Assembly: GCA_039621445.1 (NCBI GenBank) | Contig: CP154954.1 | Location: 47,285,847 to 47,349,846, forward strand | Length of the DNA: 64,000 nucleotides | From: Euglena gracilis | Taxonomy: Eukaryota | Reading direction: 5' to 3' | Shown: piece by piece, positions 1 through 55,361 of the stretch | Layout: every line of letters begins with the position of its first letter | Position numbering within the stretch: position 1 is the stretch's first letter | The notes under the pieces: generated by a model | What the model saw: only the letters and a program-made list of their open reading frames with translations | Databases searched by the model: none | Told to the model about the DNA's origin: nothing | Position numbers and translations under genes: made by a program

Positions 1-29
1 CTGAAGCTATCACAGCTTCTTGGTCAGAT
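1..29 (+). mobile_element. Family B gag fragment left of the element A insertion
   Basis: Exact reverse complement of 31156-31184 (LKLSQLLGQ). Continues at 16841. Confidence 0.9.
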
Positions 30-456: not shown

Positions 457-466
457 TCCCCCTCCC
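457..466 (-). promoter_or_regulatory. Polypurine tract
   Basis: GGGAGGGGGA on the minus strand, abutting the 3' LTR. Confidence 0.85.
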
Positions 467-6788: not shown

Positions 6789-6951
6789 GATACAGCCCGG
6801 GGTCGGTACGGTGGGATGTTTGGGTTGTTGGTTTGTTGTCAAGTGAAAGGGTAACTCCCTGGTGTTATTTGGTAAAAAGTCTGCGGAAAGAAAGAATGAT
6901 AAGAATCAATGATAAAAAGAAGAGAAAACAACATGGGTTTCCCATGCGTTC

Positions 6952-9900
6952 TCAAAAACTTGTCATGGAAACATCAATGTTATGTTTCTTGTTCCACAGC
7001 TTCCAATCTTGCTGGACATACCCAACAAAACTGGTTGCTGGCTCCCAAGTGTCCTCCTCGGGCCCATACCCTTTCCAGCGGACCTTCCAAAGGTGCATAC
7101 CTTTGTCGATTTTGTGATCGATAATTTTATCGACTACAAAGTCGTCCGTCTCAGGTAATCTGGAACGGGGTTTGAAGTGCAAACACGGGATGGGTTTCCC
7201 ATCCGGTGGCGACAGGTATGGTTTGAAGTCGTCCATATGAACGTCCTCAACACCATTCGGTAATGCAACCTTGTAACGCCCGCTGGTACCTAGTCTTTCT
7301 AGGATTTCACAGGGGCCGAGCCAGAGGGGGTCCAGCTTGGAAGACTGCATGCGAGTACGGCTATTCCGTACCCACACGCGGTCACCGGGACTGTAAACAG
7401 GTGACTTGAAATTCTGCAAAAACGATTTCCGTTTTGCTGCATGAATATCAGTCACGCGTTTCTGGACTGCAGAACGTAGATTTTCTACTTCCGCAAACCA
7501 GGTCTCGCAACTGACACTCGTTCGGGCGGGTCTCTCCGAAGGGACATCCCCTATGGCCGGAGGGTCCCGTCCGAAAACTAATTTATAGGGGGAGTGAGGT
7601 AAAACCAACCCTGGTAGGGTATTGATATAAAACAAAGACCATGGTAGAACTGATATCCAGTTGCTGCGCGAGTCAGCCAGTGAAAGGCGAAGCATATTCA
7701 CGACGGATTTCACGGCTGCCTCGGCTCTACCATTGCCTTTGGGTCGGTATATAATGGAAAAATGTTGCTCGATTCCGAGTAAACCGCACAAAGTGGTGAA
7801 AAACCTTGAAGAAATCAAATGGTCTTGATCACTCACGATTTCATTCGGTAAACCCATCAAGCAAATGCATTTCTCCAAAAATATAGTTGCCAAACTTTGG
7901 GCAGTCAACCCTGACTTCTGGCATGGAATGGCTACAATGTACCCACTCAGCCTGCAGACGACAACAAAAACGTAATCGTAAATTTTGTCGTCTGTTCCTT
8001 TGCACGGTTACAATTCCAAAAAATCCATGCAGAGGGATGTAAAAATGTCAGGGGGTACGGGGAAAAAGTCCATCGTACCAGGGGGGGTACCTCTGCGGGG
8101 TTTTACCGCTTGACAAATTTGACACCGTTGCGCTATTCGCAAACAGCGTGAGTAAAGCTCTTTCTCGCTCAGGGTTGTACAGTACCTGCGGCCCACCAAC
8201 GAAAGAAGTTTGGGGGCCCCAGGGTGACCATGGTTGTGATAACACAAAATCACATCATCAACCAGGTCCTGGGGGATACAATATTTGTAACCCGATTCAT
8301 TGCGAAAAACCAACCGTAAAGGTGAAAGAGTGTAATTGTCCAGCACTTCGCCATTACGAAGTCTGGTGACAATGGTGTCATACACCGGGTCACGACTATA
8401 ATCCCATTCGCGAAAGAACAGTGGGGAAGGGGACTCCGTGCGCGTAATACGCCGGGGCCCGGACGTGCTTCCACGTCGGCGCCTTCCTCGCACTGGTGCG
8501 ACCAGGAATAGTTGTGAAACGGGAAAAGAATCCAAAAGATTGTCCGCAGCGTCGGTTCGACGTGCGTATCCTGTGCGTATTCCTGACTTCCATGAAAAGT
8601 CGCGTCTCCCTCATCCGGGTTCCCAGGGTAATACCAAGGGGCCCGACTGAGCGGATCCGCTACTTTTTGTGTGTGTCCAGGGGTATAAATAACCACAAGG
8701 TTGAATTGACTCAAGAACTCATGCCATCTGCATCGCCTTCCGACCGATGACATGGCCTTGTTCAAATCCTCGGTGTACCAGTGTTGCAGACTCTCATGGT
8801 CGGTCTTGACGAGGATCTGGACGAGGGTGCTGGCTACCCAGCTTCGGAATTTCTGGAGTATAAGCACGATTGCGTAGGTTTCCTTCTCGCGTATACTCCA
8901 TTTGACTTGACCTTTTCCATCGTCGCCCTGTAACTTTCTGCTGAAGAAAGCCACAGGTCGGAGCTCATTCGCCGCATTATGCTGGCTAAGAACTCCGCCA
9001 ACAGCGTAATCGCTGCTGTCGACTTCCAACACGTATGGTTTGTACGGGTCCGCGATTTCGAGGACAACATTCTCCAAAAGCAAAGCCTTGATTTTCTCAA
9101 GGGCCTCGCGCATTTGGTCATCCCAAATGACTTTGGTGTTGTCAACAGCCCGGTTTTTGAGCTGTTTGGTGAGGGGCACCGCGATTTTCGCGAAGTCCTT
9201 CATATAAATCGCGTAGTATTGGGCTAATCCCAAAAATCCTTTGACGTGAGTAATCGTTTTGATTTCCTCAGGGGTCCATTTCTTAATAGCTTCGAGTTTA
9301 CTCGGAGCGGCTTTCCGCTGTCCATTGCTGAGGATGTGCCCGCAAAATTTTATACGTATCCGAAAAAAATTCATGTTCGCGCCTTTGGAGAAAGTCACAT
9401 GTTTTTGAAAAGCGGTTAATACCGCGCAAAAATGGTGGAAGTGTGTGACGAGGATATCCTGGCTCGATTTTGCGGACGGTGGTGGTGTTCCCACCAGCAC
9501 ATCATCAATGTACCCAATGGCAAACGGTAAATCGCGTTAAACCCATTGGATCATGCGTTGAAACATGGCTGGGCCATTCTCAACACCCACGGGGAGTACC
9601 GTCCATTGGTACACACCCTTGGATGTCACGAATGCCGTGTATGGTTGGGAGTCAGGGTGTAAGTGCATTTGGTGTGAAAACCGTCCTCCAGATCGAAAAT
9701 TGACCACACACGGTTTTCCGATTGTTTGGTGATCAAATCCTCGATCAGGGGGAGCGGAAAGGGATCATCCCTTGTTTGGGAGTTCAGGTACCGGTAATCC
9801 AGCACCAGCCTCCATTTCTTCTGACCTGAGGGGTCTGGGGGTTTAGGAACAAAACAAAATGCCTGGGATGTCCACTCGCTTTTCGAGGGACAAACCACTT

Positions 9901-12038
9901 GCGCTGAATAAGCTTCTCAATCATGTCATTGAGAGCTTGTTCGCGTTCTCCCGAACAACGATAAAATTTCCGTTGCATTGGTTGGGCGCCTTCCTGAAGC
10001 TGGATCTGACAAACACCAAACGGACCGCGTTTATTTTTTACCGGGGGTGGGGGGTGTCAGATAAGCCGAAATTGTCGTGCACACGGAGGTATACTGGATT
10101 TTCAAGCACAACGTGAAATCCGCGGGCATAACGCGAACAGAATTCGGCTGACTTAGGATGACCTGACTCTCGATGACTGCGGAAACACCAGGGTATATCT
10201 GGGGCTACCAAACTTCCTCAGCACCGCGAATTCGGACATTCCGAATGCATCGAAGAAACATACGCGAAAAATGATTTCTTGCACGGGTGGTAATATTTTA
10301 CCACAAAAATCCTCAAAAAATCGGTACATTAGTGGGTAAATCCCACCAATGAAAACACACATACGATAGTTGGGTGAACCATTCCGCTTCCGGAATGATG
10401 GGTATGAGAATAACTCCACGGGCTTCATCCCGCAGATTTTTCTCAACCGCACATTCGATAAGTTTTGGGGGAGGGTGCATCCATAACACCGTATCACCCC
10501 AAAATTTATCAAATGCGTTGGAGTGTTGTGACCAATGACGTGGCAAACGGGCATGTGCATTGGATGAGAAGGCATCGATTTCCAATGCCAAATCAAAAGA
10601 ATCAGCCAATGTCGCGATTTTGGAAAACCATCGTTCCAAAATGCGATATTGACCAAAATTGAAAGCATTCCATATGCGTTTCGCGTATTCATGCACCCGA
10701 TTTTCGGGTTGAAGGGTAGAAACACAATGAATGGATCCACAAACATGCGGGTTGTCTTCCACTACCACAAGGGTTAATCCCAAGGGAGTTTAGACAGGTT
10801 GGGGGTTTCCCCATTCCGCATCAAATCCGTACCAAGTGTGATCGCGATTGTAATTAGGAATGGCGCTTTTCGCGTTTCCAAACAACGAGGCTAATCCTCG
10901 TTGTTGGAGTACTCGGTGTATCTCCGCGCATTGCGGGCTACAACCAAGTGTATCATGGGGGGTGGATTCCGTTTTCGGAATTGCGATTAGTGTCGGATTT
11001 TGAACTAAACATCCACAATCGAAATCCGATTGGGTGGAAATTCTCCTGCAGTGCACACATTGGAAGGAAGTGTGATGGTGTGACGGGTGTGCGTGAAAGT
11101 GGGTGTCGATGGCATTAGCCGGGGAGTCTTGTACAGGTGTGCCTGGATTCGGCACAGCTGGTGGGAAACGGAGTGGTGGTGTGGCTGTGGCTCGACACCG
11201 TGATCACTGCAGGCCTTTGGGCTTTCGTCTTGTAACCCAGTGGAACGGCGGGGGTACCGCTACTCGCTTGCCCTGCCTCATGTGGAACGCATGTTGGTGT
11301 GTCATTGGGCAGGGGGGAGGCTTTCTCCGTACCCCGGGTGTGGAAAACGGTTGTTGGTGTGGTGGGTAACGGTGTTGCCATTGTGGGTAACGGTGTGGGC
11401 AAAGCGGTGGTCATCATAGTGGATGACAACGGTGATGGTGGTTTGGGTGTCAATGAAGTGGTGAGTGCTGTGCGCAAACCGTGGGAGTGGCAATCCACAA
11501 CCAATCGGTACTGGCGTAAAAATGGGTATCCCAAAATTACGTCAGACCCGTGAATTCCGGACTCGTAACCCCAAATATTGGTGAAATGTTGTAATTGTGG
11601 GGGTTGTGAGTGATGCTTCGGAATGATGGGCAAGAGTATCTCGAGCACACATCCCAAATCACCACCACACATGGGGGTGTTATCCGCGGTTGTAATTTTG
11701 ATCGGTTTCTTGGCGCTTACCAAGAGCGGGGTCGGTATCAACCCCAACCGAAAGAGCAGTGCAATGCGACAACCAGTGTCAATGAGAATTTTGACTTTGG
11801 TGGAGAAATTTTGAATGCGGATTTCCGCTTGGACGAGTAATTCCATTGGTGGTACGCAAAGTGAAGGGTCTGGCGGAAATACGTTTGCATGCCAGCTCTC
11901 CCATGAACCCTTTCCTACTTTGCTCAGCATTCCGAGCGGAAATGTGGAGTGGGGGGTAGGGGACCCGAAATAATTCCGGGTACTGACCGTGAAGGCGGAT
12001 GGGCAGGGGGGGTAAGGTTGATCAGGTCTTACCTCCAT
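6952..12038 (-). pseudogene. pol: Pol of element A (PR, Dam-like MTase, RT, RNase H, integrase, chromodomain), frameshifted
   Basis: Fragments: ILIDTG protease (11115-12038), IDAFSS...WMHPPP (10313-10783), RT KWRLVLDYRYLN, RH VLEVDSSDYAVGGVL, HHCC plus D-D-E integrase, and chromodomain WKVRWKGYGPEEDTWEP. Colinear with the near-intact B pol. Confidence 0.92.
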
Positions 12039-12083
12039 CTGTTCATCAGCCCAGAGGTCCGTGCCCTCGGACCTCGGGCTCCC

Positions 12084-15000
12084 CTACTCCAAGTCCGAAC
12101 CGGCCGCATAGCCGGCAACGGACTTTTGGTGGAATAGATGGAATTCAATGAGCGCACCGCCATTCGGGCCTCATTAAATTCCCCGTCCGAGGTCTCATCC
12201 CCCTCCCTGCCCGAAGCCGGGGTGTCCTCCTCCAAACAAGATATCTTGAAACCGACCTTTTGCCGGTTGGAGGAGTAACCACGGTCATCGCGGCGCTTAC
12301 CGCGATTTCCGTAGCCGGGCCGGGGGGAACGAGATCTGGGACATTTGGATGCGTGGTGATCTTTGGAACCGCAAAGTGAACAACGGGATTTGTGGCGGGA
12401 TTCCGCATAACGGGGGGAACGGTATTCCGTTTTTCCGTCAAACCGTCGTGGTGAACGGGTTTCCCGTCGACCATGACCGGTGTATCGGGACTTCCCCGTT
12501 GACTCGCGTGAAGAGGATGATCCACTTCGCGAACGAGATCGTGAAGAATCGCGATTGAAATCCCGTTTTCGTGCAGGAGGGCCAGGTGACCGACCGCGAG
12601 AAGGACGGGTTTCCCGACCATCACGCGATGGTGACTTGGGCCTACTACCGCTAAAGCGGTTCTCCGAAGACCGTGAAACTCCCGATTGACGTGAAAACGC
12701 CGAGGAACCCGATCCCCGTGAGGAGGTCGAGCCCCTTGGGCTTCCAATACGCTTTCGCGCATCGGGATTCGGGCATTCCCGAGACATGTGACCAGATTTG
12801 TTGCAAAAAAAGCACAGTTTATCCGTGCCCTGGTCCGAAGAACGCTGATTCCGCGTTTTCGGTCCCGTGGTGGGTGATCTTGGTGACATGGGTGATTTTT
12901 GCAACGCATTAACCGCACCCGCAGGGATTCCCGCGGTGGGATGCGTTTGGAAAGCGGACTGTATTTGTCCCAAAACTTGTGTGAGCTTGAGTTGCTTTGA
13001 CACATAATTCCAACGTTGGGCAAGAGTCATCTCATGCCCTGCCAACTCCTCGCGATGGATATCCTTCACGAGGGATGGTGTGAAATGCAACAAAACCGCA
13101 TCGAATTGTTCGCGCATTTGCTTCTCGCTAAGTTCATCAACTTCGGAAGCAAGTGCTAACCATTTGGCATACCAAAGGTCAATGGATTTCCATTTGCGAT
13201 CCGATGGCGCGCGTTGTCGCCACTTCTTCTCCAGGGTAATCCTGGTGACCAGACTTGAATTGGTTGAAGCGTATTGCTCAACCAGGTCATCGAATGATAC
13301 GCCATTACGTATCACCAAATTGCGTGCGCGTTCTCGCTCCTCCCTCGGTAGGCAATCGATGAATTCCATCTTGACTACCTCGGGATTCGGGTCTTGGGTG
13401 GGTCCCTTTAGTGCCCAATAGTACTCCCAGTCCCGAAAAAATTGTCTCCATGTGGTTGGATCCCCGTCCCATTGAGGCTTCACCTTGTTCGCGATTGCGA
13501 TGGTGCCCTTGAAGTCTCTCTGAGTAACCCGCTGACCCTCGGTGGTATTCCAGGGGTTTGGGTCAGGGTAATTCTTAACACCAAACGCGTTTCGCGGATT
13601 TTCCGCTCCATGTGTAACCCGTGCAGGATTTCCCGCACCAAGTGTAAGGTTGGCAGGATTTTCCTGCGGGAATTGCGAAAAATGTGGTGAAATCCTCTCA
13701 GTGGGGCGGGTTTCCCGCCGAAAACCCGATGGGTGGTCTGGCATTCCAGAACCCGTCGGTTGTTGGTATGATCGCGATTGCGACACATGACCAATACCAG
13801 GTGTGGGGTGTTGGCTCATTCCTCGCACAAGGTTGGAATGTTGAATTTCTTGGTGGAGACTCGAATTTTCGAGTGGGGGGTCAATTTCCTCATCGGAAAT
13901 GTCGTGCGAAGAGTGAGTTTGTGGTGTTGGCAAATGCAAAGGTGGTACAATTCGCGTTTTCGCGGGTGGTTGTACCAAATTCGCGGTGGATGTAGGGATT
14001 CCTACTCCGGAAAAGGTAATTTGAGAACGCGATTCCGGGACATTTGGAATACCAACCGCAGCGCTTACCGCGGTAGGTGGTGGCACAACCGGTACCGGAG
14101 GGTACATTTTATCCAAACTCGCGGACAAGTCATGCACCGTTTCTTCCAAATGTTCCACCAACTGGAGTTGGCCGCAAATACGGTCAACCTCAGTCTCCAA
14201 ATGCCTAATGCGTTTGCGGTAACGGGAAAAATCTTCCAAGTGTGGCAACTTTTCAGAAACCAAGTGTAATTCTTGGGCAAGATTTCCTTGGGACTCCTCC
14301 ACATTCCGGAGTTGACCCGCAAGCGCTTTTACCGCATTTGAGACGGTTTGCAATTGGTGGAGTGACTTGGTGGGGGTTTCCACGGTGGTGCGCGAATTTT
14401 CCGCGGTTGGTTTTTCCAACAACGCAGAAATTCGTCCATCCAACCGAGAAACCTCATCTTGCATGGATCGGGCATTCCGATTCACGCTTTCCTCAATTTG
14501 GAGCAAACTTGTACAAAATGCTTGCAAGGTTTCCTTGTTGTCACCAAGCACTTTGTCATAAAATGAGCGAAATTCCGGTGACTCGGATATCCGAGCACGC
14601 GAAATGGGGGGTAGTGAGCGGATTTCCGTCACTGTGGTGGACAACAAGGTGCAACGGGTTTGTAATTCCCCAATAGCGGCTTGAATACCACTAATGTCGG
14701 GAATTCGCTTGGAAAGTGCAGAAACATGCTCCTGCAAACCGACAACGGTGGCATTAATACCGCCAATGTCCGTTTGCATTTGTTGTTGCGTAAAATCCAA
14801 CCGTTGTGCGCAATCCGCGATTTTCGCGTTCAAGGTGGTTAATCCATCCTGATTTGCGGCACAATGGCAGGATTTTTGCTCCAAGTGTGAAATTCGTTCC
14901 TCCAAAAGCTGGATTTGCGTACGGGGAACAAAATTTTCTTGCACTTTCGCCTGAAATTGCTTCAAGTGCTCGATTTCCGAGCCAAGATGCAAAATCCGTT

Positions 15001-15976
15001 GTTGGGCTTCTTGGAAAGAAGTGGTAAGTGCGGCAAAATGCTCAACCGCGACAAAGTTACCGATTTCCGGCATTTTGGGGGTGGCATTTTGCGCTTGTAA
15101 CTGCTGCTGCAATTGCAGTAGCATGGTTGAACAGGATTCCAATTGGGCAAAAAGATGGCTCATACCATCCTGCACATGCAGAAACTTGGAATCATTCCGC
15201 GTTTCCGCTTCATGCAGCATTTCGCTGATTTGTTGGAAATTTTGTGGAAGTTGGATGCGCAAAATACTGTCAACACTTTCTCGAAAATGCTGAAGGTCTT
15301 TCCCCGCATTTTCAAAATTGTGTTGGCAATATTTGCCGATTTCCTGCAAATAATTCCAGCAACATTCCAGTTTGGTGTTGACAACCCTTTGATTGTCCTC
15401 ATCAAACTGCAAAACTTTGTTGAGCATGGTTGCGCATTCCGCAACGCATTGGTGGACATGCAAAATTTGCTTGCTAAGCGGGTGATCCGCTGGGAGTTGA
15501 CCGAGAATTCGGTAAACATCACCGGGGGTGAGGTTATCCCTCAAATCTTCCTCATAGTCCTCCACAATGGAAACGGCACCAGACACTTCCGCCCACCTCA
15601 GCCCCATCTCTGGGTTCCATGGCAATGCAGGGAAAACCGCAGCTTCCGCGGGTAATCCCGGCAAAGCGTGAAATGGTGTGGGGGGTGGTAATTGAGGGGG
15701 GGGTTGGAAAAAACACGGTGTTTCCACCGAGTTGCACTCCAAAAGGCCCACCGGTGCTTCCACCGGGGATCTTTTGGGTGTGAACAGAGCAAAGGGCAAA
15801 TACCCCTCACTTTGTTCATGGGTAACATGAGTAACCAAGTGTGAGGGTGCAAGGGGTTCATCCCCTCGCCGCATCAATGATGGGTGAATCGGGATGGAGG
15901 AAGGCATTTTGCCACCTACATCCCGCACAATCAATGACAATGATGATGAAGAGGGTTCATTACCCCCATGCAACAT
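12084..15976 (-). CDS. gag: Gag-like polyprotein of element A (~1,300 aa)
   Basis: Long coiled-coil-like N-terminal region, capsid-like PQWDGDPTTWRQFFRDWEYY, two CCHC knuckles (CFFCNKSGHMSREC, CSLCGSKDHHASKC) and an RS-rich region. A 1-nt deletion just before the conserved TAG (12084-12086) shifts the ORF-track end to 12029. Confidence 0.9.
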
Positions 15977-16402
15977 AAAGGCGTTTCGCCTTTTGACAAT
16001 GACAAATGAGTCAAATTGCCTTCTTCTTGCTTGGGGGGTCGGGAATTGGAACTTGTTTCATTCAAACCGTTCCAATCCCCGCAATCTTCATCACAATTGC
16101 TCAATGAACTCATCAACAAGTCATAATCAAATTTGGGGTTGGGGCTTGTGCTCTGCATCTTTTGAGATGGGTAAAAAGGCAAAAACCCAAAAATTCACAC
16201 AAATAAGCAGAGAAACAGGGACCAGAAAGGTTGTATCGGCGATTACCGAACAGAGCCTTCTGAGACCTGTATCCTTGCTTAAAGGTTGGCTAGGGGCCAG
16301 GAACAGTACTTTCACCGTGTTTCACGGCTCAGTACGATCCTCACCACCAGTCAACCACAGAGTTTCTCTGTGTGGAACGTCTGTGTAGGATCGTTGCCTA
16401 AA

Positions 16403-16412
16403 TCTGCTACCA
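16403..16412 (-). promoter_or_regulatory. Primer-binding site, initiator tRNA-Met type
   Basis: TGGTAGCAGA immediately 3' of the 5' LTR, complementary to the ...UCUGCUACCA 3' end of many eukaryotic initiator tRNAs. Confidence 0.8.
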
Positions 16413-16840
16413 AGTGTACGTCCAAAGCTTTCCCTTTTCCCCTTTTTGGAACTTTCTGTAAAAGCCTTTCGCTTTCGCCTTGGTGCGCAGCCTACTTATG
16501 GTAGGGAAAAGTCTTTGGAGTAACGAAAAGTGGTTTTCCCCTTTTCTTCCCAATTCCCCAAGAAGCAAAGCACAAAGCAAAGATTCAGAAGTTTCTTCTG
16601 AGATCAAAGTCGATTGTTCTGAGGGTTTTTCCCTCTGACAAAACCAATGGTGAAACTTGGAAGTGATGACAGTAAAGAATACCACCTGTGGGGGAAGGAG
16701 AGAAAAGTGCTGACGTGTCCAGGGGCAGATCCCAGAAGGGTCTGCCACGATCTTACCAGCTGTGGGTTTCCACAGTGGTGCGACCGTCACAGAACCCACT
16801 CTGCACATATCCTACAGAGCTGGGGCGTGCCTGGTACACA
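16413..16840 (-). repeat. 5' LTR of element A
   Basis: Begins TGTGTAC on the minus strand and ends GTACACT. Directly followed by the PBS. Confidence 0.96.
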
Positions 16841-17722
16841 CAGATTCAATCCGCGTATACCGCACACCCAACCGCTGGATTACCGGCTGGTTCGGTGAAC
16901 GCATTGCAAAAATCACCGGTTTCACCCGCTTCACCCACCACGGGATCGAAAACGCGATACCCGCGTTCTTCGGACCAAGCCACGGATAAAGTGTGCTTTT
17001 TGTGCAACAAATCCGGACATATGTCTCGGGAATGTCCTAATCCTGAAGCGCGTAAGCGTATTCAGAGTCCGCGAGGCTCGACGTCATCACGTGGTTCGGG
17101 TTCCTCCGCGTTTTCACGCCAATCGGGCAATTCAAGGTCGTCGGGTCCCCGTTCCGGTGGTATTAGCCCCCGGATCCCGTTCCGCGATGAGCGGAAACAC
17201 GGTACCCCTCGGGGTAGGTCACCCGGTGCCCCGGCCAAGAAGCGTGATTCTCATCGCGAGGCATCGCGATCGCGTTCGCGAAGCGGATCATCCTCTTCGC
17301 GATCCTCATCGGGAAAACCCCGATACACCGGTCATGGTCGACGGGATACCCGGTCACCACGACGGTTTGACGGGAAATCGGGAAACCGATCCCCCCATTA
17401 TCCAGATTCGCGACACAAATCTCGGTGTTCGCTTTGTGGATCGAGTGATCACCACTCATCCAAATGTCCGCGTTCTCGTTCTCCCCGCCCTGGCCAACGT
17501 CATCGCGGTATGAATCGCGGTGACAAGGGTCACTCCTCCAACCGCCATAAAGTCGGTTTCAAGATATCTTGTTTGGAGGATGACACCCCGGCTTCGGGCA
17601 GGGAGGGGGATGAGACCACGGATACCGATTTCGACGAGGCCCGCATGGCGGTGCGCACGTTGAAATCCGTTTACACCTCTAAAAGGCCCATAGCCGGCTA
17701 TTCGGCCGGTTCGGACCTGGAG

Positions 17723-17761
17723 TAGGGGAGCCCGAGGTCCGAGGGCACGGACCTCTGGGCT
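17723..17761 (+). promoter_or_regulatory. Putative gag-pol stop-codon readthrough signal (UAG plus stem-loop)
   Basis: TAG GGG AGCCC-GAGGTCCG-AGGGCA-CGGACCTC-T-GGGCT, with pol in frame. Identical on the minus strand at 12048-12086 and 30240-30278. Confidence 0.75.
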
Positions 17762-18265
17762 GATGAACAGATGGAGGTAGGACCTGATCAACCCTGCCCC
17801 CCCTGCCCATCTGCCTTCCTGGTCGGTACCCGGAAAATTTTCGGGTCCCCCACCCCCCACTCCAACTTTCCGCTCGGAATGTTGTGCAAAGTAGGAAAGG
17901 GTTCATGGGAAAGCTGGCAAGAAAACGTATTTTCGCCAGACCCTTCACTTTGCCTACCACCCATGGAACTTTTGGTCCAAGCGGAAATCAAAATGCAAAA
18001 TTTTTGTACAAAAGTCAAATTCTCATTGACACTGGTTGTCGCATTGCACTACTTTTTCGGTTTGGGTTGACGCCAACCCCCCTCTTGGTGAAAACCAAGA
18101 TGCCAATCAATACTACGACAGCTGACAACACCCCCATGTGTGGTGGTGACTTGGGATTTCGGGCATTGTCCTCCCCGTCATCCCAAACACCCACACAACC
18201 CCTCCAAACGCAAAATTTTCTGGATTCCTGGGGATTTGAATCCGGAATCCATGGTTCTGACGTAA

Positions 18266-18273
18266 TTTTTTTT

Positions 18274-18321
<48 letters not shown>

Positions 18322-18325
18322 TTTT

Positions 18326-18406
<81 letters not shown>
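18266..18406. repeat. ~140-nt poly-T tract
   Basis: Direct inspection. Absent from the minus-strand B copy. Confidence 0.95.
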
Positions 18407-18408
<2 letters not shown>

Positions 18409-19458
18409 GTCAGCACCGGCTGGTGGTGGAAGGCCACTCCCACGGTTTGCTCACATCACCCTCCTCCTCATTGCCCCCCAAACCCTCATCACCTGTGGCG
18501 TCAACCGCGATAGCCACCAATTTTTCCACACCGTTTTCGAAAACTTTTACCCCGTTACCAACCACACCAACCAACGTTTTCCACACCGGGTGTACCGAGA
18601 AAGTTCACCCCCTGCCCATTGACACACCAACTTCCGTTCCCCATGAGGCAGGGCAAGCGAGTAGCGGTACCCCCCTCGTTCCACTGGGTTACAAGACGAA
18701 AGCCCAAAGACCTGAAGTAATTACGGTGTCGAGTAGTCGTCCAGCTGCACTAATACCCCGTTTTCCACCAGATGTATCGCTTTCAGATACATCTGTACAC
18801 CCCCCAGCAGCTACAAAAGCGCATCCCAACTTTTACACACCCCCCCACCAGACCAACATGCGCGACCAGGACCACTACTCCGACACTTCCTTCCAATGTG
18901 TGCACTGTAGGAGAATTTCCGCCCAGCCAGATTTCGATTGTGGATGTTTAGTCCAAACACCAACACTAATCCCAATTTCGCGCACCCATACACTTGGTTG
19001 CGGATCGCAATGCGCGACCGTACATCAAGTCAAACCTGGGCAGGGCGCATGGCCAGTCAAACCTGACCACGCAAAAGGAAATCCTACTCTACAAAACCAA
19101 CTGCCGGCGACAGCATTTGACACGGGGGGAAAGTAGAGAGGCGTGGGTTGTTCGCTTAGGCCAGAAAAATGGTGCTGTCTGGCAGCCTTAAGGCCTCAAA
19201 CGGCCGAAAAGAAAAGAAAGGGAAAGGAAAAGAGGCCGTCGGCCCTGTGCGCTGCGTGTCGCACGCCCGCGAGAGGGGAGAGGGGTGTGCATGCATGCGC
19301 ACGGAATCCTGCACATGGCAGCATCCCGGTTGGAACTTACTAGCGGCGAATACCGCAAAGGACTTCAAAGGGGCTGTTCGGGCGAATACCCAAACAGGAT
19401 GTCAGGCGAATACCTGACGAGGGTGCTGAAAGACGCCGCATTGGCGCTGACAGACACC

Positions 19459-25147: not shown

Positions 25148-28100
25148 TTAGACAGTGTTTATGTTTATGTCTATGTTATTGCGCTTGTTGCACAGCTTCC
25201 AATCCTGTTGGACATATCCAACAAAACTGGATGCTGGCTCCCAAGTGTCCTCCTCTGGCCCATACCCATTCCAGCGAACTTTCCAGTAGTGCTCACCCCT
25301 GTCGACCTTGTGGTCTATTATCTTATCGCCCACAAAGTCGTCCGTTTCAGGTAATCTGGAACGGGGCTTGAAATATAGGCAGGGGATAGCTTTTCCGTCT
25401 GGGGGGCTTAGGTACGGTTTGAAGTCGTCCATATGGACGTCCTCAATCCCGTTGGGCAAGGCAACTTTATATCGCCCGCTACTACCTAACCTCTCCAAAA
25501 TTTCGCATGGGCCGAGCAAAAGAGGATCTAGCTTGGAAGATTGCATGCGGGTGCGGTTATTCCGTACCCACACGCGGTCACCTGGACTATACACAGGTGT
25601 GTTGAAGTTCTGCAAAAACGATGTCCGTTTGTTGGAATGAATTTCTGTGATACGTGATTGGACTGCAGAGCGGAGTGATTCCACGTCTGCAAACCACGTT
25701 TCACAGCTGACGCTACTTCGGGCGGATCTCTCCGAGGAGATATCCCCTATGGCCGGAGGGTCAGGTCCGAAAACAATTTTGTATGGTGAGTGTGGTAATA
25801 CCAACCCTGGCAAGGTATTGATGTAAAATAAACACCAATGAAGAACGGATAACCAATTCTTACCCGAGTCCGCCAGTGAAAGGCGAAGCATATTGACAAC
25901 GGATTTCACGGCTGCCTCGGCTCTACCATTGCCTTTCGGGCGGTATATAATGGAAAAATGCTGCTCAATGCCGAGTAAACCGCACAAAGTTGTGAAAAAC
26001 CGCGAAGAGATCAAGTGATCTTGATCACTCACGATTTCGTTCGGTAAACCCATTAAGCAGATGCATTTCTCCAGGAATATGGATGCCAAAATTTGGGCTG
26101 TCAACCCTGCTTTCCGGCATGGAATGGCTACTATGTACCCACTCAGCCGACAGACGACAACAAAAACGTAATCGTAAATTTGGTCATCTGATCCTTTGCA
26201 AGGTTCAAGTTCGAGAAAATCCATGCAGAGGGACGTAAAAATGTCTGGTGGTACGGGGAAAACGTCCATCGTACCAGGGGGGGTACCTCTGCGCGGTTTC
26301 ACAGCCTGACAAATTTGGCACCGTTGCGAAATTCGCAAACAGCGCGAATATAAATCTTTTTCACTCAGGGTTGTGCAATATCTGCGACCCACTAGTGAAA
26401 GAAGTTTGGGGGCCCCAGGGTGACCATGGTTGTGATAGCTCAAAATCACATCATCAACCAGGTCTTGGGGTATACAATATTTATAACCAGAATCATTCCG
26501 GAAAATAAGCCGCAATGGTGATAGAGAATAATTCTCTATGGATTCACCATTACGAAGTCTATTCACAATGGTACTATATACCGGGTCACGCGAATAATCC
26601 CATTCGCGGAAAAATAGGGGGGTAGGAGTTTCCGTACGCGTAATGCGACGGGGTCCGGCAGTGCGTCCACGCCGGCGCCTTCCACGCAATGGTGAAATGG
26701 CAATGCTGCGATACACCCGGCAAACGGGTAGTGAATCGAGCATGTTGTCCGCAGCGTCGGATCGACGTGCGAACTGGCCAGCCTCATGGCTGCCATGAAA
26801 AGTCGCATCACCCTCATCCGGGTTCCCAGGATAATACCAGGGGGCTCGGCTGAGAGGATCCGCAACTTTTTGCGTATGACCTGGGGTATAAACTACCACC
26901 AGGTTAAACTGGCTCAAGAACTCATGCCATCGGCATCTTCTGCCAACTGATGACATGGCCTTGTTCAGGTCCTCGGTATACCAGTGTTGAAGGCTTTCAT
27001 GATCCGTCAACACTAGTATCTGGACCAAGCTGCTGGCTATCCAGCTGCGGAACTTCTGGAGAATTAGCACAATGGCATATGTCTCCTTTTCGCGAATGCT
27101 CCATTTAACCTGTCCTTTCCCGCTGTCGCCCTGTAGCTTCCTGCTGAAGAAAGCCACAGGTCGGAGTTCATTCGCCGCATTATGCTGGCTAAGAACCCCG
27201 CCAACAGCGTAATCGCTGCTGTCGACCTCCAGGACATACGGTTTGTATGGATCCGCGATATCGAGAACCACGTTCTCGAGGAGCAAGTCCTTGATTTTAT
27301 TCAAGGCCTCGCACATTTGGTCATCCCAAATGACTTTTGCGTTATCGGGTGTCCGATTTTTGAGTTGTCGGGTTAGGGGTACCGCGATTTTCGCGAAATC
27401 TTTCATGTAAATCGCGTAATATTGGGCTAATCCCAAAAATCCTTTTAAATGCGTTAAGGTCTTAATGACCTCAGGAGTCCATTTCTTAATGGCCTCCATC
27501 TTACTGGGTGCGGCTTTACGCTGCCCGTTGCTCAGGATGTGTCCGCAAAACTTAATAATTTTGCGAAACAGGTGCATTTTGGAACCCTTCACAAAAAGCA
27601 CATGCTTTTGGAACGCGGATAATACCGCGCGCACATCGCGATAATGCGGGTCGAGGATATCCTCGCCCGATTTCGCGGATGGCGGTTGGGTTCCCACCAG
27701 TACATCATCGATGTACACCAGAGCAAACGGTAAATCGCGCAAAACCCACTGGATCATGCGTTGAAACATGGCTGGGCCATTCTTAACACCCATGGGGAGT
27801 ACCGTCCATTGGTACACACCCTTGGATGTCACGAATGCCGTGTACGGTTGCGAATCAGGATGCAAATGCATCTGATGGAAACCGTCTTCCAGATCAAAGA
27901 TTGACCACAACCGGTTATCCGATTGTTTTGTGATCAAATCCTCGATCAGCGGTAACGGGAAGGGGTCATCCTTCGTTTGGGAGTTCAGGTACCGGTAATC
28001 CAGCACCAGTCTCCACTTCTTCTGACCAGACTGGTCAGCGGGTTTGGGCACCACAAAAGCTTGTGATGTCCACTCGCTCTTGGAAGGGATAATCCACTTC

Positions 28101-30230
28101 CGCTGGATGAGCTTCTCAATCATCTCGTTGAGAGCCTGTTCGCGTTCACCCGAGCAACGGAAGAATTTCCGGTGCATAGGTTTAGCGCCATCCTTGAGCT
28201 CGATTTTGCAAACACCGAACGGACCGCGAATCGCGGGGTCGATGTCGCAGGCGTAAACTGGGTTATCCAGTACACCATGGAATTCGCGAGCAATTCGCGA
28301 ACAATAATCAGCAGACTTGGGATGTTGGTCCGCACTCTCAATGACCGCAGAAATCTGCGTTGAGGGTGTGGCATCCCCATCCGTACCAAGGTATCTTGGC
28401 ACACGCAAATCGGATATTCCGAATGCGTCGAAGAAACAAACGCGAAAAATGATTTCTTTGACAGGTGGTAATAATATACCACAAAAATCCTCAAATAGTG
28501 GTACATCAGCGGGTAAATCCCACCAATGAAAACACACATAGGATAGTTGGTGAAACCAATCCGCATTCGGATTGACCGGTATGAGGAGAGCTCCTCGCGC
28601 TTCATCGCGGAGGATTTTCTCCACCACATCCGGGATAAGTTTTGGGGGAGGGTGCATCCATAGCACCGTATCACCCCAAAATTTAAGGAATGCGTTGGTA
28701 TGTCGCGACCAATATCGCGACAAGCGCGCATGCGCTTTTGATGAGAACGCATCAATTTCCAACGGCAAATCGAAGGAATCAGCCAAAGCCGCGATTTTGG
28801 AGAACCATTCCTCCAAAATACGGTATTGACCAAAATTAAATGCGTTCCATACGCGCATCGCGTAGGTGTCGACCTGGTTCGCGGGTTGAAGAGCGGTAAC
28901 GCAATTCAGGGATCCGGAAACATAGGTCAAGGGTGTGTCATCCACACTCCCAAGGGGCATTCCCAAGGGTTGATGGGTTGGATGGGTGCATACCCAGTCC
29001 ATATCATGCCAGATGGAGGTGGGGGAGGTGTGTGACACGGATTTCGCGGTCCCAAACAACAAGGCAATACCTCGTTGTTGGAGCACTTGATGTACGGTCG
29101 CGCATTGCGATCCGCAACCAAGTGTATGGGTGCGCGAAATCGGGATTAGTGTTGGTGTTTGGACTAAACATCCACAATCGAAATCTGGCTGGGCGGAAAT
29201 TCTCCTACAGTGCACACATTGGAAGGAAGTGTCGGAGTAGTGGTCCTGGTCGCGCATGTTGGTCTGGTGGGGGTGTGTGTAAAAGTTGGGATGCGCTTTT
29301 GTAGCTGCTGGGGGGTGTACAGATGTATCTGAAAGCGATACATCTGGTGGAAAACGGGGTATTAGTGCAGCTGGGCGACTACTCGACACCGTAATTACTT
29401 CAGGCCTTTGGGCTTTCGTCTTGTAACCCAGTGGAACGAGGGGGGTACCGCTACTCGCTTGCCCTGCCTCATGGGGAACGGAAGTTGGTGTGTCAATGGG
29501 CAGGGGGTGAACTTTCTCGGTACACCCGGTGTGGAAAACGTTGGTTGGTGTGGTTGGTAACGGGGTAAAAGTTTTCGAAAACGGTGTGGAAAAATTGGTG
29601 GCTATCGCGGTTGACGCCACAGGTGATGAGGGTTTGGGGGGCAATGAGGAGAATGGTGATGTGCGCAAACCGTGGGAGTGGCAATCCACTACCAGCCGGT
29701 GCTGACGTAAAAAGGGGTATCCCAGAATTACGTCAGAACCATGGATTCCGGATTCATATCCCCAGGTATCCGGAAAATTTTGCGGTTGGGGGGGGGGTGT
29801 GAGTGGTGCTTGGGGATGAGGGGTAGGACAATGTCCAAAAAGCATCCCAAGTCACCACCGCACATGGGGTGTTGTCAGCCGTCGTAATTTTGATCGGCTT
29901 CTTGGCTTTCACCAAGAGGGGGGTTGGTATCAACCCGAACCGAAAAAGTAGTGCAATGCGACAACCAGTGTCAATGAGAATTTTGACTTTTGTACAAAAA
30001 TTTTGGATTTTGATTTCCGCTTGGACCAAAAGTTCCATGGGGGGTAAGCAAAGTGAAGGGTCTGGCGAAAATACGTTTTCTTGCCAGCTTTCCCATGAAC
30101 CCTTTCCTACTTTGCACAACATTCCGAGCGGAAAGTTGGAGTGGGGGGTGGGGGACCCGAAAATTTTCCGGGTATCGACCGGGAAGGCAGATGGGCAGGG
30201 GGAGCAGGGTTGATCAGGTCCTACCTCCAT
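25148..30230 (-). CDS. pol: Pol of family B: protease, Dam-like MTase, RT (YIDD), RNase H, integrase, chromodomain
   Basis: ORF 29754-30230 (DTG protease) plus 1565-aa ORF 25148-29845, separated by one frameshift. LPMGVKNGPAMFQ and YIDD in RT; integrase CMDF, VSDQ, GRAE; chromodomain at the C-terminus. Confidence 0.95.
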
Positions 30231-30275
30231 CTGTTCATCAGCCCAGAGGTCCGTGCCCTCGGACCTCGGGCTCCC

Positions 30276-31856
30276 CTACTCCAGGTCCGAACCGGCCGAA
30301 TAGCCGGCTATGGGCCTTTTAGAGGTGTAAACGGATTTCAACGTGCGCACCGCCATGCGGGCCTCGTCGAAATCGGTATCCGTGGTCTCATCCCCCTCCC
30401 TGCCCGAAGCCGGGGTGTCATCCTCCAAACAAGATATCTTGAAACCGACTTTATGGCGGTTGGAGGAGTGACCCTTGTCACCGCGATTCATACCGCGATG
30501 ACGTTGGCCAGGGCGGGGAGAACGAGAACGCGGACATTTGGATGAGTGGTGATCACTCGATCCACAAAGCGAACACCGAGATTTGTGTCGCGAATCTGGA
30601 TAACGGGGGGATCGGTTTCCCGATTTCCCGTCAAACCGTCGTGGTGACCGGGTATCCCGTCGACCATGACCGGTGTATCGGGGTTTTCCCGATGAGGATC
30701 GCGAAGAAGATGATCCGCTTCGCGAACGCGATCGCGATGTCTCGCGATGAGAATCACGCTTCTTGGCCGGGGCACCGGGTGACCTACCCCGAGGGGTACC
30801 GTGTTTCCGCTCATCGCGGAACGGGATCCGGGGGCTAATACCACCGGAACGGGGACCCGATGACCGTGAATTGCCCGATTGGCGTGAAAACGCGGAGGAA
30901 CCCGAACCTCGTGATGAGGTCGAGCCTCGCGGACTCTGAATACGCTTTCGCGCTTCAGGATTAGGACATTCCCGAGACATATGTCCCGATTTGTTGCACA
31001 AAAAGCACACTTTATCCGTGGCTTGGTCCGAAGAACGCGGGTATCGCGTTTTCGATCCCGTGGTGGGTGAAGCGGGTGAAACCGGTGATTTTTGCAATGC
31101 GTTCACCGAACCAGCCGGTAATCCAGCGGTTGGGTGTGCGGTATACGCGGATTGAATCTGACCAAGAAGCTGTGATAGCTTCAGTTGCTTGGAAACATAA
31201 TTCCAGCGTTGGTCAAGAGTCATTGCATTACCCGCCAACTCCTCACGATGGATATCCTTGATGAGGCTAGGCGTGAAATGCATGAGAACAGCGTCAAACT
31301 GTTCGCGCATTTGCTTTTCACTGAGTTCATCCACTTCAGCGGCAAGTCCTAACCATTTGGCATACCAAAGGTCAATGGACTTCCATTTGCGATCGGGTGG
31401 GGCGCATTGCCGCCACTTGGTCTCCAGGGTAATCCTAGCGACCAAACTTGAACTGGTGGAAGCGTATTGCTCCACCAGGTCATCAAAGGAAACGCGGTAG
31501 CGAATGACGAGTTGTCGCGCGCGCTCCTTCTCATCCCTAGGGAGGCAATCGATGAATTCCATCTTGATCACCTCCGGGTTTGTGTCCTGGGTTGGCCCTT
31601 TCAATGCCCAGTAGTACTCCCAGTCCCGGAAAAACTGTCTCCATGTGGTTGGATCACCATCCCATTGGGGTTTCACCTTATTCGCGATTGCGATGGTGCC
31701 CTTGAAGTCTTTCTGAAAAACCCGTTGGCCCTCGGTGGTATTCCGTGGATTCGGGCCCGGGTACGCTCGAGCACCAAGCGTATCCTTTCCGGATTCTTGT
31801 CGGAATCGCGAAATTTCTGGTGAAGGTGAATCCTGGTACCGGAAATCCGGTCGCAA
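30276..31856 (-). CDS. gag: Gag of family B (5'-truncated)
   Basis: 526-aa ORF closely similar to the C-terminal part of element A Gag, with two CCHC knuckles. Ends GSDLE-TAG. Confidence 0.9.
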   Translation of the reverse strand: MRPDFRYQDSPSPEISRFRQESGKDTLGARAYPGPNPRNTTEGQRVFQKDFKGTIAIANKVKPQWDGDPTTWRQFFRDWEYYWALKGPTQDTNPEVIKMEFIDCLPRDEKERARQLVIRYRVSFDDLVEQYASTSSSLVARITLETKWRQCAPPDRKWKSIDLWYAKWLGLAAEVDELSEKQMREQFDAVLMHFTPSLIKDIHREELAGNAMTLDQRWNYVSKQLKLSQLLGQIQSAYTAHPTAGLPAGSVNALQKSPVSPASPTTGSKTRYPRSSDQATDKVCFLCNKSGHMSRECPNPEARKRIQSPRGSTSSRGSGSSAFSRQSGNSRSSGPRSGGISPRIPFRDERKHGTPRGRSPGAPAKKRDSHRETSRSRSRSGSSSSRSSSGKPRYTGHGRRDTRSPRRFDGKSGNRSPRYPDSRHKSRCSLCGSSDHHSSKCPRSRSPRPGQRHRGMNRGDKGHSSNRHKVGFKISCLEDDTPASGREGDETTDTDFDEARMAVRTLKSVYTSKRPIAGYSAGSDLE

Positions 31857-31914
31857 ACCCTGTTGGTCACCGTTAATAGGATAAGGCTAAGGTTAAGTAT
31901 ATATAAGTATATGT

Positions 31915-55080: not shown

Positions 55081-55158
<78 letters not shown>

Positions 55159-55234
55159 GATATATATATATATATATACACATATATATACACATATATA
55201 TACATATATATATATGTATGTGTATATATGTGTA

Positions 55235-55317
<83 letters not shown>

Positions 55318-55323
55318 GTATAT

Positions 55324-55358
<35 letters not shown>
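55081..55358. repeat. Compound (TA)n/(TG)n microsatellite
   Basis: Direct inspection. Confidence 0.97.

Positions 55359-55361
<3 letters not shown>

Follow-up and report, generated by a model that had tools for sequence, protein, structure and literature searches.

What does a Dam-like methyltransferase domain do inside the Pol protein of a chromodomain-bearing Ty3/gypsy retrotransposon of Euglena gracilis when its motif IV reads His-Pro-Pro-Pro? Retrotransposons equipped with both a chromatin reader and a DNA- or RNA-marking enzyme of their own bear on the adaptation of mobile elements to host epigenomes. The window, by which we mean the whole 64,000-nucleotide stretch analyzed here, holds two copies of such an element (A and B) and a partial copy (fragment C). 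An earlier note on this DNA had proposed that the domain is either an altered enzyme or a catalytically dead nucleic acid binder kept under selection.

Position of the Dam-like domain in two element copies

In copy B, one open frame unites the Dam-like domain (Pfam match at residues 354-434) with RVT_1, RNase H, integrase H2C2 and rve, SH3, and Chromo domains, and the order along this frame is protease end, linker, Dam-like domain, reverse transcriptase, RNase H, integrase, SH3, and chromodomain. The features of copy B are as follows.

25148..29851, minus strand: Pol open frame, stop to stop, 1567 codons (1567 aa)
25229..25327, minus strand: chromodomain, residues 1509-1541 (Pfam, 34.2 bits versus a threshold of 25.1)
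25937..26473, minus strand: integrase, H2C2 zinc domain and rve core, residues 1127-1305 (Pfam; H2C2 29.3 bits, rve 31.9 bits, slightly below the 32.6 cut-off)
26906..27328, minus strand: RNase H, residues 842-982 (Pfam)
27533..28048, minus strand: reverse transcriptase RVT_1, residues 602-773 (Pfam E 1e-26)
28391..28906, minus strand: Dam-like domain of predicted methyltransferase fold, Pol residues 316-487
28643..28654, minus strand: motif IV HPPP, residues 400-403, His codon CAC
28739..28753, minus strand: motif I-like DAFSS, residues 367-371
29168..29218, minus strand: Cys motif C-x2-C-x9-C-x-C (CVHCRRISAQPDFDCGC), residues 212-228, in the interval between protease and Dam-like domain
29754..30275, minus strand: upstream frame with the protease active site LIDTGC (at 29972)
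30276..31886, minus strand: part of Gag with a CCHC zinc knuckle

The earlier note had placed the domain between protease and reverse transcriptase of a chromodomain gypsy Pol, and this is the arrangement found, with LIDTGC upstream and the reverse transcriptase, RNase H, integrase, SH3, and chromodomain downstream. The span that it gave, 28420-28845, falls inside the domain as delimited here, and the peptide that it quoted (LEIDAFSS..HARLSRYWS..NAF..FWG..VLWMHPPPKLI..VVEKI..LLIP..WF) occurs in the minus-strand frame 25148-29851. The LIDTGC frame and the Pol ORF are out of phase, which means that a frame break splits the protease of copy B; its C-terminal stretch (...DVILGYPFL) lies at 29734, 5' of the Dam-like domain. 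The Cys motif belongs to a small separate unit, predicted with moderate confidence to fold and followed by a disordered linker. Copies A and B and the relatives P0005 and P0008 all keep the motif; of 31 homologues whose upstream part is 150 aa or longer, 6 have it. A search of copy B for LTRs found none. Neither a WW domain nor PF12237 was matched by Pfam in Pol at E ≤ 1, and tyrosine recombinase is absent from the Pfam matches of Pol.

Copy A is a whole LTR element, and its features, together with those of the fragment that it entered, are listed below.

30..16840, minus strand: copy A, whole LTR element, 16,811 bp (16.8 kb), inserted in a B-like fragment
30..456, minus strand: 3' LTR, 98.4% identical to 16413-16840
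1345-6905, minus strand: extra 3' ORFs
6952-12083, minus strand: pol, in pieces
10213..10729, minus strand: Dam-like domain with motif HPPP, ends approximate, placed by offset from copy B
12029-16057, minus strand: gag
16413..16840, minus strand: 5' LTR
16841..19030, plus strand: fragment C, a partial B-like copy in inverted orientation, with 97-98% identity to 29085-31160 of copy B

The purine tract GGGAGGGGGA adjoins the 3' LTR, and the primer-binding-like TGGTAGCAG comes after the 5' LTR on the minus strand. A 5-bp target-site duplication, CAGAT, at 25-29 and 16841-16845 flanks copy A in an otherwise continuous target, which is fragment C; the latter ends before the Dam-like domain and so has no Dam-like region. 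The in-frame part of the copy A domain is the ORF at 10313-10789, which carries the same motifs, MHPPPKLI included; a 1-base insertion near 10313 (codon 451 of copy B) disrupts the frame of the domain. The domain is therefore present in both of what the earlier note called families; across 6.7 kb, copies A and B are 79.6% identical in DNA, which makes them two diverged lineages of one family.

In 18 further long reading frames of the window, Pfam matched only CCHC knuckles, a coiled-coil-type match in Gag, and one LOG-family exon, and Rfam and tRNA scans of the window found nothing. Part of copy B Pol occurs in 20 of 24 sequencing runs among the matches listed; one of these runs is an RNA record, a leaf-litter metatranscriptome, at 0.43 of the sampled words.

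Family and predicted fold

PF05869 (Dam) was the top Pfam match of both copies (25.8 bits for B, 23.8 bits for A), neither of which reached the gathering score of 28.1. No other Pfam family matched the B domain, and the one other match of the copy A domain was NAD_binding_8 (E 0.074). PHROG 111 "DNA methyltransferase" was matched by both copies (E 4e-6 and 7e-6), and a phmmer search of 1.84 billion representatives returned 441 homologues at E ≤ 1e-3, 91 of them at E ≤ 1e-10. A chance occurrence of the motifs was rejected on the basis of these two profile matches and the 441 homologues. PF05869 was matched at E ≤ 0.01 by 42 of 54 aligned homologue rows (best 2.6e-12), and PF12237 was matched weakly by two of the 54 and by P0132. 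Relatives above the PF05869 gathering score include P0022 (37.9 bits), P0027 (39.7), P0023 (31.6), and P0035 (29.5), and the relatives that pass it tie to the window domain at phmmer E values of 1e-20 to 1e-25 (P0022 8e-25, P0027 1e-22, P0035 1.5e-20). P0157 and P0158 have the same order as the window element, Dam-RT-RNase H-integrase-chromodomain, and P0132 has the DIRS order RT-RNase H-Dam-like; the presence of the PF05869 family in DIRS-type Pol agrees with the kinship to DIRS methyltransferase domains put forward in the earlier note. A 74%-identical relative from another source has an open domain with the motif HPPL. Searched by sequence against the PDB, the single domain gave a best E of 1 and the family profile gave no match at E ≤ 1. 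A word-index protein search in the length band of the whole Pol recovered 1 relative among 112 candidates, and exhaustive phmmer was needed; two scans of metagenome contigs for related DNA loci produced no confirmed relative. The ESM Atlas returned unnamed eukaryotic clusters only, in one of which 11% of the members carry PF05869, a lead and nothing firm.

Dam domains in Ty3/gypsy elements, chromodomain-bearing ones included, have already been described as "DAM-LTR" (Fernandez-Moreno et al., bioRxiv 10.64898/2026.05.21.726589, May 2026), so that the caution on novelty voiced in the earlier note was well placed. We consider it very probable that the window domain belongs to this transposon-borne eukaryotic Dam family, as a DAM-LTR Dam-like domain.

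The earlier note had named a Rossmann methyltransferase fold as the check on its proposal. The AF2 (AlphaFold) model of the domain (pLDDT 91.7, pTM 0.85) predicts a compact class I (Rossmann) SAM-methyltransferase fold with motif I ahead of motif IV. BFVD gave 20 structural matches at E ≤ 1e-3, headed by phage "DNA N-6-adenine-methyltransferase" proteins (E 3.7e-10 to 1e-6 and TMq 0.60-0.68, with TMq 0.66 for the first, and 10-20% identity to the domain), after which came giant-virus PCIF1-like proteins at E 5e-5 and weaker. Against the PDB, VIA-align, in which rows within 1 Z unit count as tied, gave PCIF1 (6irw, 6irx) as the best solved structure among the matches listed (Z 10.8, rmsd 2.6 over 127 residues), then METTL5 (8.9), KsgA (8.8), EcoDam (8.7), T4 Dam (8.7), and M.TaqI (8.2). 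Its best 50 rows are, save one or two, SAM-dependent methyltransferases or methyltransferase-fold proteins by title.

These matches bear on a reading that we regard as doubtful, in which the domain would act on or bind RNA rather than DNA in the manner of PCIF1, holding the transcript or mimicking PCIF1 at RNA polymerase II. It concerns the substrate and overlaps with the binding-module explanation given below. PCIF1 is the top solved structure by Foldseek (E 5e-4, TMq 0.62) as well as by VIA-align, two of 54 relatives and P0132 match PF12237 weakly, and DIRS1 methyltransferase domains have been placed in the PCIF1 clade, argued to be inactive binders, and suggested to mimic PCIF1 at RNA polymerase II (Iyer et al. 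2016, PMC4738411). On the other hand, in BFVD the phage DNA Dam proteins are far ahead of the PCIF1-like ones (E 4e-10 versus 5e-5 and weaker), and the small phage Dam proteins may have no solved structure to compete in the PDB ranking with its tied rows. By sequence the family is PF05869 and not PF12237 (42 versus 2 of 54), and Pol has no WW domain.

Motif IV, selection, and the probable role of the domain

Motif IV is HPPP in both copies, as opposed to NPPF in the family, and falls outside the (D/N)PP(Y/F/W) pattern; the replacement of NPPF/Y reported in the earlier note is thereby confirmed, with identical codons in A and B and synonymous changes close by. The motif could be aligned in 137 homologues, a sample skewed toward relatives of a query that itself bears His. 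Its first position holds Asn in 91, Cys in 11, Asp in 0, and His, the commonest non-Asn state, in 29; an F, Y, or W occupies the fourth in 89. The window domain retains all positions whose conservation in the family reaches 85%, namely D52, F54, W66, A72, F73, W77, L82, W83, P86, P87, K97, P110, W117, R155, F159, and A161; its departures from the family are N85 to H, F88 to P, D71 to N, and N59 to H. The motif I-like DAFSS compares with a consensus of DAFAS, whose D and F are shared by 95% and 96% of homologues, respectively. Placement of all His-type rows in one single clade was rejected (AU p 6e-4), and a separate His clade of eight rows (SH-aLRT 97) spans 33-86% pairwise identity; His forms of motif IV have had more than one origin. 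This long-lasting His variant is the sole feature of the element that we did not find described in print.

The dN/dS of the domain between A and B, estimated by Nei-Gojobori from this one pair of copies, of which A is frame-broken, is 0.199 (bootstrap 0.126-0.320; dS 0.58-0.70, dN 0.11-0.14, ratio 0.19-0.20), compared with 0.74 in the upstream linker, 0.10 in the reverse transcriptase, 0.10 in the integrase, and 0.03 in RNase H. A value of 0.20 with an interval of 0.13-0.32 is not neutral, and it bears out the earlier note's supposition that the domain is kept under selection: purifying selection has acted on it since the A/B split. It is accordingly very improbable that the domain has lost all function and is a relic in decay, its motifs surviving only because the copies are young. 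The broken frame within the copy A domain, the non-canonical motif IV, and the split protease of copy B would all suit a relic, but a domain ratio of 0.19-0.20, bounded above by 0.32 and set against 0.74 in the adjoining linker, does not, and nor do the intact scaffold residues or the open HPPL-bearing domain of the 74%-identical relative.

In (D/N)PP(Y/F/W) enzymes such as M.TaqI, the Asn forms a hydrogen bond with the amino group to be methylated, and the flipped adenine is stacked upon by the aromatic residue. With HPPP, both the amino-bonding Asn and the base-stacking aromatic would be lost, and ordinary N6-adenine methyl transfer is for that reason most likely gone. On balance, we consider the Dam-like domain (PF05869-type, PCIF1-like in predicted fold) of this Ty3/gypsy chromovirus Pol to be probably a non-catalytic or altered binding module. 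Catalytic impairment combined with a binding role is somewhat favored by the residues at motif IV. Such a putative module would hold SAM and/or the element's RNA, cDNA, or RNA:DNA hybrid; alternatively, its partner might be a host methylation or transcription factor.

It is unlikely, though deserving of serious weight, that the domain is instead still an active methyltransferase in which His takes the hydrogen-bond role of Asn and which marks the element's cDNA, RNA:DNA hybrid, or RNA. Purifying selection has the strength expected of a working domain, all scaffold residues and motif I are retained, and His is recurrent and persistent where Asp never occurs, which resembles a chosen chemistry and not decay; the same pattern would fit equally well with a His that sustains some catalysis. 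Yet both key positions of the tetrapeptide are altered, the fourth being a Pro incapable of base stacking, D71 of the DAF motif is Asn, and we know of no characterized methyltransferase with an HPP motif. In the preprint, DAM-LTRs are tied to raised 6mA in three hosts with 6mA enrichment on DAM-LTR copies, which favors activity for the family at large, but heterologous transposon Dam domains, NPPF-type included, yielded no 6mA in E. coli (bioRxiv 10.64898/2026.05.21.726589).

A more speculative extension, to which we give a low probability, is that the His motif IV (HPP-x) reflects not decay but a change of function that is recurrent and long-lived; the switch could be, for example, from a writer to a reader or holder of adenine or 6mA, or to another kind of catalysis. 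It draws on the 29 His against no Asp in 137 homologues, the rejected single clade, the 33-86% identity within the eight-row clade, and the purifying selection. If such a switch is real, the picture of a near-universal Asn-Pro-Pro pocket in the preprint text would miss a second functional class. If His-type domains are inactive yet selected, as a binding module would be, they would support the binding view of Iyer et al. 2016 (PMC4738411) and temper the preprint's model of 6mA writing by transposon Dam domains.

Comparison with DAM-LTRs and other known systems

To these questions the window contributes a nested insertion of 16.8 kb, complete with its LTRs and target duplication, a direct measurement of selection on a Dam-like domain, and the change of the catalytic Asn to His, here and repeatedly elsewhere. 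The Dam/Ty3-gypsy fusion itself is not new, and, set against the published description of DAM-LTRs, the window element is a further example: the defining features are found as Dam, reverse transcriptase, and integrase in one ORF of copy B and as LTRs and a target-site duplication in copy A. [quoted passage not shown] The proposed DAM-LTR role is the marking of cDNA, RNA:DNA hybrid, or RNA (bioRxiv 10.64898/2026.05.21.726589). The differences lie in motif IV, where nearly every Dam domain sampled in the preprint, prokaryotic or eukaryotic, retains Asn-Pro-Pro, in contrast to His-Pro-Pro-Pro here, and in the size of the window element (16.8 kb), with its long Gag and extra 3' ORFs. The order protease-Dam-RT is seen in the window element, and the main text of the preprint does not give the order for the chromovirus-like clade (bioRxiv 10.64898/2026.05.21.726589).

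DIRS1-type elements share the domain family, but their Pol is arranged as RT/RNase H/MT, they use a tyrosine recombinase, and they lack a protease, a DDE integrase, and true LTRs (PMC2685390, PMC4738411). In the window element the domain precedes the reverse transcriptase, and a protease, a DDE integrase, and LTRs are all present, as is a target duplication of 5 bp. Identification as a DIRS element was rejected on account of the integrase (H2C2 and rve), the absence of a tyrosine recombinase, the position of the domain before the reverse transcriptase, and the upstream protease DTG.

Among enzymes, the small phage PF05869/PHROG 111 N6-adenine methyltransferases give the best profile and BFVD matches and have the same size and motif order, but they are free-standing, whereas the window domain is part of Pol. 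PCIF1/CAPAM, the cap-specific adenosine N6-methyltransferase, is the closest solved structure; its motif is NPPF, and it differs in having a WW domain, a large helical domain, and a capped-RNA substrate, and in showing no sequence match to the family profile. METTL14, the non-catalytic partner of METTL3, has a degenerate motif IV in which the (D/N)PP(Y/F/W) chemistry is lost and a conserved nucleic acid-binding scaffold is kept. Although it is a cellular protein of the MT-A70 family and works in a heterodimer, METTL14 shows that a methyltransferase fold can be conserved as a binding scaffold after this chemistry is gone.

Pol organization and nested copies

The minus strand of the window carries related and nested LTR retrotransposon copies. 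Along the open Pol frame of copy B, Pfam domains follow the order Dam (sub-threshold), RVT_1, RNase H, H2C2, rve, SH3, and chromodomain, and the protease active site LIDTGC lies directly upstream, at 29972. The methyltransferase-like peptide singled out in the earlier note (about residues 344-478 of the frame) was thus correctly placed, after the protease and before the RT in a chromodomain gypsy Pol. In copy B, LIDTGC is in another frame, and the protease is therefore split; in copy A, LIDTGC and the downstream ...DVILGYPFL share one frame. No copy B LTRs were found within the window.

Features of copy B (numbers after the first line are Pol residues)
25148-29851 (window), minus, Pol open frame, 1567 codons
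316-487 (window 28391-28906), minus, Dam-like domain, limits as set in this analysis
354-434, minus, Dam match in the whole-Pol Pfam scan, 21.2 bits, sub-threshold
602-773, minus, RVT_1 (Pfam, E 1e-26)
842-982, minus, RNase H (Pfam)
1127-1187, minus, integrase H2C2 (Pfam)
1208-1305, minus, rve, 31.9 bits, slightly below the 32.6 cut-off
1424-1475, minus, Tf2-type SH3 domain (Pfam)
1509-1541, minus, chromodomain (Pfam, 34.2 bits versus 25.1)

Self-comparison of the window aligned A 6974-13570 with B 25170-31763 at 79.6% identity, so that what had been read as two families are two diverged lineages within one family; copy B upstream of 31763 has no similarity to copy A. Copy A is a complete LTR-element insertion, with a primer-binding-like TGGTAGCAG after the 5′ LTR, a purine tract before the 3′ LTR, and the 5-bp duplication CAGAT on both sides. 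Because of this duplication, and because window 1-29 and 16841 onward rejoin seamlessly when set against copy B sequence, we conclude that the target of the copy A insertion was fragment C, a partial B-like copy in inverted orientation. The insertion point is in the gag region of fragment C, which adjoins the truncated 3′ part of copy B at 19030/19031. Relative to the B open frame, the Pol of copy A (6952-12083, minus) has nine indels that are not a multiple of three and three in-frame stops, one break being a 1-base insertion within the Dam-like domain, at B codon 451. Pol is broken although the LTRs are nearly identical, and the breaks either came from a master that was itself defective or are assembly indel errors.

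Copy A, fragment C, and other features of the window
30-456 and 16413-16840, minus, copy A LTRs, 98.4% identical to each other
1345-6165, minus, copy A 3′ frame, 1606 aa
5838-6905, minus, copy A 3′ frame, 355 aa
12029-16057, minus, copy A Gag frame, 1342 aa
16841-19030, fragment C, inverted partial B-like copy, ending short of the Dam-like region
29168-29218 (B) and within 10790-11203 (A), minus, Cys motif C-x2-C-x-R-[IV]-[ST]-x-Q-x-[DN]-[FY]-D-C-G-C
53289-54035, plus, LOG-family frame ("possible lysine decarboxylase," PF03641), E 9e-12 over residues 132-178
55081-55401, tandem and inverted repeat block of short period (8-14 bp)

Both 3′ frames of copy A lie between the end of the Pol chromodomain and the 3′ LTR, are rich in Pro, Ala, and Lys with a Cys-rich C-terminal part, and gave no Pfam match; copy B 19079-24721 is colinear with this region and weakly similar (69-83% identity in short patches). 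The 1345-6905 region is a putative accessory 3′ ORF within a gypsy element 16.8 kb long. In copy A Gag, the CCHC knuckles are preceded by a long, coiled-coil-like N-terminal extension with weak matches to NPV_P10 and Laminin_II. The LOG-family frame, the sole match to a non-transposon family found in the window, is probably a host gene exon. Part of copy B Pol (25148-29851) occurs in 20 of 24 public runs among the matches listed; one of these runs, a leaf-litter metatranscriptome on record as RNA, contains 0.43 of the sampled words, which is not in itself evidence of expression.

Homology and fold of the Dam-like domain

Searched alone, the domain matched PF05869 at 25.8 bits (B) and 23.8 bits (A), both below the gathering score of 28.1, and PHROG 111, "DNA methyltransferase," at E 3.8e-6 and 6.8e-6 for the two copies. 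Exhaustive phmmer against 1.84 billion representatives detected 441 homologs at E<=1e-3, of which 91 reach E<=1e-10 and 11 reach E<=1e-30, and several relatives linked to the window domain at E 1e-20 to 1e-25 clear the PF05869 threshold themselves. In an alignment of the two window copies with 52 shorter matches among the 150 listed, 42 of the 54 rows match PF05869 at E<=0.01 (best 2.6e-12).

With this 54-row alignment as input, AlphaFold2 predicted alternating strands and helices (pLDDT 91.7, pTM 0.85). Foldseek found 20 BFVD matches at E<=1e-3, headed by phage "DNA N-6-adenine-methyltransferase" proteins (3.7e-10 to 1e-6, TMq 0.60-0.68) and then giant-virus PCIF1-like proteins; against the PDB, PCIF1 (5.2e-4, TMq 0.62) was the sole match at E<=1e-3, with KsgA and DIMT1 next. 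PCIF1 also ranked first among the 48,161 chains compared by VIA-align (Z 10.8, rmsd 2.6, 127 residues), before METTL5 (Z 8.9), KsgA (8.8), EcoDam (8.7), T4 Dam (8.7), and M.TaqI (8.2), and all but one or two of the best 50 rows are, judged by titles, SAM-dependent methyltransferases or methyltransferase-fold proteins. PDB searches by sequence gave no match. The predicted structure contains a Rossmann methyltransferase fold, the absence of which, according to the earlier note, would have refuted its reading.

The Cys motif lies 100-170 residues upstream of the domain and is kept in A, B, P0005, P0007, P0008, P0010, P0011, P0013/P0157, and P0040, all close relatives. The model shows it as a small unit on its own (pLDDT 58-80), with ~50 disordered linker residues after it, and a role as zinc-binding partner to the domain is possible.

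Selection and the variant motif IV

Selection was estimated by the Nei-Gojobori method, with the B frame projected on the A/B nucleotide alignment, gapped codons skipped, and no sequence repaired.

dN/dS between copies A and B (bootstrap range in parentheses)
Dam-like domain, 171 codons, dN 0.139, dS 0.697: 0.199 (2.5-97.5%, 0.126-0.320)
Dam-like domain core: 0.188 (0.108-0.339)
Protease-to-domain linker: 0.74 (0.491-1.098)
RT: 0.10 (0.063-0.143)
Integrase: 0.10 (0.062-0.148)
SH3 and chromodomain: 0.06 (0.025-0.104)
RNase H: 0.03 (0.011-0.060)
Whole Pol frame: 0.16 (0.139-0.194)

The domain ratio refutes neutral divergence and agrees with the suggestion that the domain is kept under selection; it is also conservative, because any neutral decay in copy A since its insertion would raise it. 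Constraint on the domain is real, yet looser than on the replication enzymes, and the reading of the domain as a relic is highly improbable. A folded, conserved, and selected Dam/PCIF1-like domain is translated within the Pol of an integrase-type chromovirus.

A phmmer-anchored alignment of 151 homologs gave the consensus DAFAS ... W ... DAF..xW ... LWxNPPF ... K ... P ... W. All positions conserved at >=85% are retained in the window domain (D52, F54, W66, A72, F73, W77, L82, W83, P86, P87, K97, P110, W117, R155, F159, and A161, domain numbering), and the catalytic tetrapeptide is changed at N85 (to H) and F88 (to P), with further departures at D71 (to N) and N59 (to H). The HPPP reported for both copies was borne out; its codons are the same in A and B (CAC for His), and synonymous differences occur close by. 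P0005, the nearest relative outside the window at 74% identity, has HPPL. The motif is aligned in 137 rows. At its first position these have N (91), H (29), C (11), F (3), or Y, A, or L (1 each), and at its fourth F (73), L (10), Y (8), W (8), I (7), P (6), or another residue (25).

A maximum-likelihood tree was built without the motif columns from the 62 rows with >=110 filled columns and the motif present, the other 89 being too short or gapped. The window domain pairs with P0005 (SH-aLRT 99) within a 13-row clade (SH-aLRT 94) whose motif is mostly NPP[ILV], indicating that the aromatic residue was lost earlier than Asn. A second, separate clade of eight rows (SH-aLRT 97; pairwise identity 33-86%) has HPP[ND], HPSP, or HPTI. 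The first-residue state requires at least eight changes on this quick tree, which has a weak backbone and draws on a match list biased toward relatives of a His-bearing query. A single grouping of all 14 His rows, named only after the tree was seen, was rejected (AU p 6e-4).

In M.TaqI-type enzymes, the motif Asn hydrogen-bonds the target amino group and an aromatic residue stacks on the flipped adenine. The HPPP pocket is non-canonical and would lack both, so that ordinary N6-adenine methyl transfer is unlikely. We lean somewhat toward the domain being a binding module that takes up SAM, nucleic acid of the element (RNA, cDNA, or hybrid), or both, or being one that recruits host factors, rather than an ordinary N6-adenine methyltransferase. 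That it is instead an active enzyme using His is the main rival, favored by the recurrence and persistence of His among the homologs and by the complete absence of Asp from the motif variants (0 of 137 rows at the first position), and we regard it as rather unlikely. The earlier note's observation and its interpretation, of either an altered enzyme or a catalytically dead nucleic-acid binder, both stand.

Relation to described Dam-bearing retrotransposons

Among the relatives, P0157 and P0158 have the order Dam-RT-RNase H-integrase-chromodomain, and P0021 and P0035 the same without a chromodomain match; the window is therefore not alone in its protease-Dam-RT layout, which is widespread in environmental sequence. 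P0132 has the DIRS order, RT-RNase H-Dam-like. The environmental protein P0122 (1114 aa) is copia-like in order, with Dam between integrase core and RVT_2, and may match the "Chloro-Ochrophyta" arrangement of a May 2026 preprint (bioRxiv 10.64898/2026.05.21.726589).

The main text of that preprint, the only relevant work found in the literature on adenine methyltransferases in gypsy or LTR elements, describes 10,030 eukaryotic Dam-containing proteins, 53.9% of them tied to retrotransposons, with chromodomain-containing LTR elements making up 30.9% of the latter. Its authors claim the first report of Dam domains in non-DIRS LTR elements and define five DAM-LTR lineages: chlorophyte chromovirus-like, chloro-ochrophyte, ichthyosporean, Pyropia, and Euglena. 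The caution that similar fusions may exist was thus warranted: the Dam-gypsy Pol fusion is already described in general, and the window element is a further DAM-LTR. The preprint also reports that Asn-Pro-Pro is retained in almost all Dam domains, that E. coli expressing these domains gained no 6mA, and that 6mA is enriched on DAM-LTR copies in two ichthyosporeans and Euglena. Its main text holds nothing relevant on inactive domains or a His variant, on both of which its supplements may bear; the durable His-type motif IV under purifying selection is the only feature that we did not find in print.

Previously, Dam-like domains had been mentioned for DIRS only (PMC5890265), where Pol has the order RT/RNase H/MT (PMC2685390). 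The DIRS1 methyltransferase domain has been assigned to the PCIF1 clade of the M.EcoKI/M.TaqI group by Iyer, Zhang and Aravind (PMC4738411), who judge DIRS1 copies likely inactive and suggest that they bind the transcript of the element or act as PCIF1 mimics. The predicted fold of the window domain, with PCIF1 first in the PDB and phage Dam first in BFVD, fits both published views of the family's affinities.
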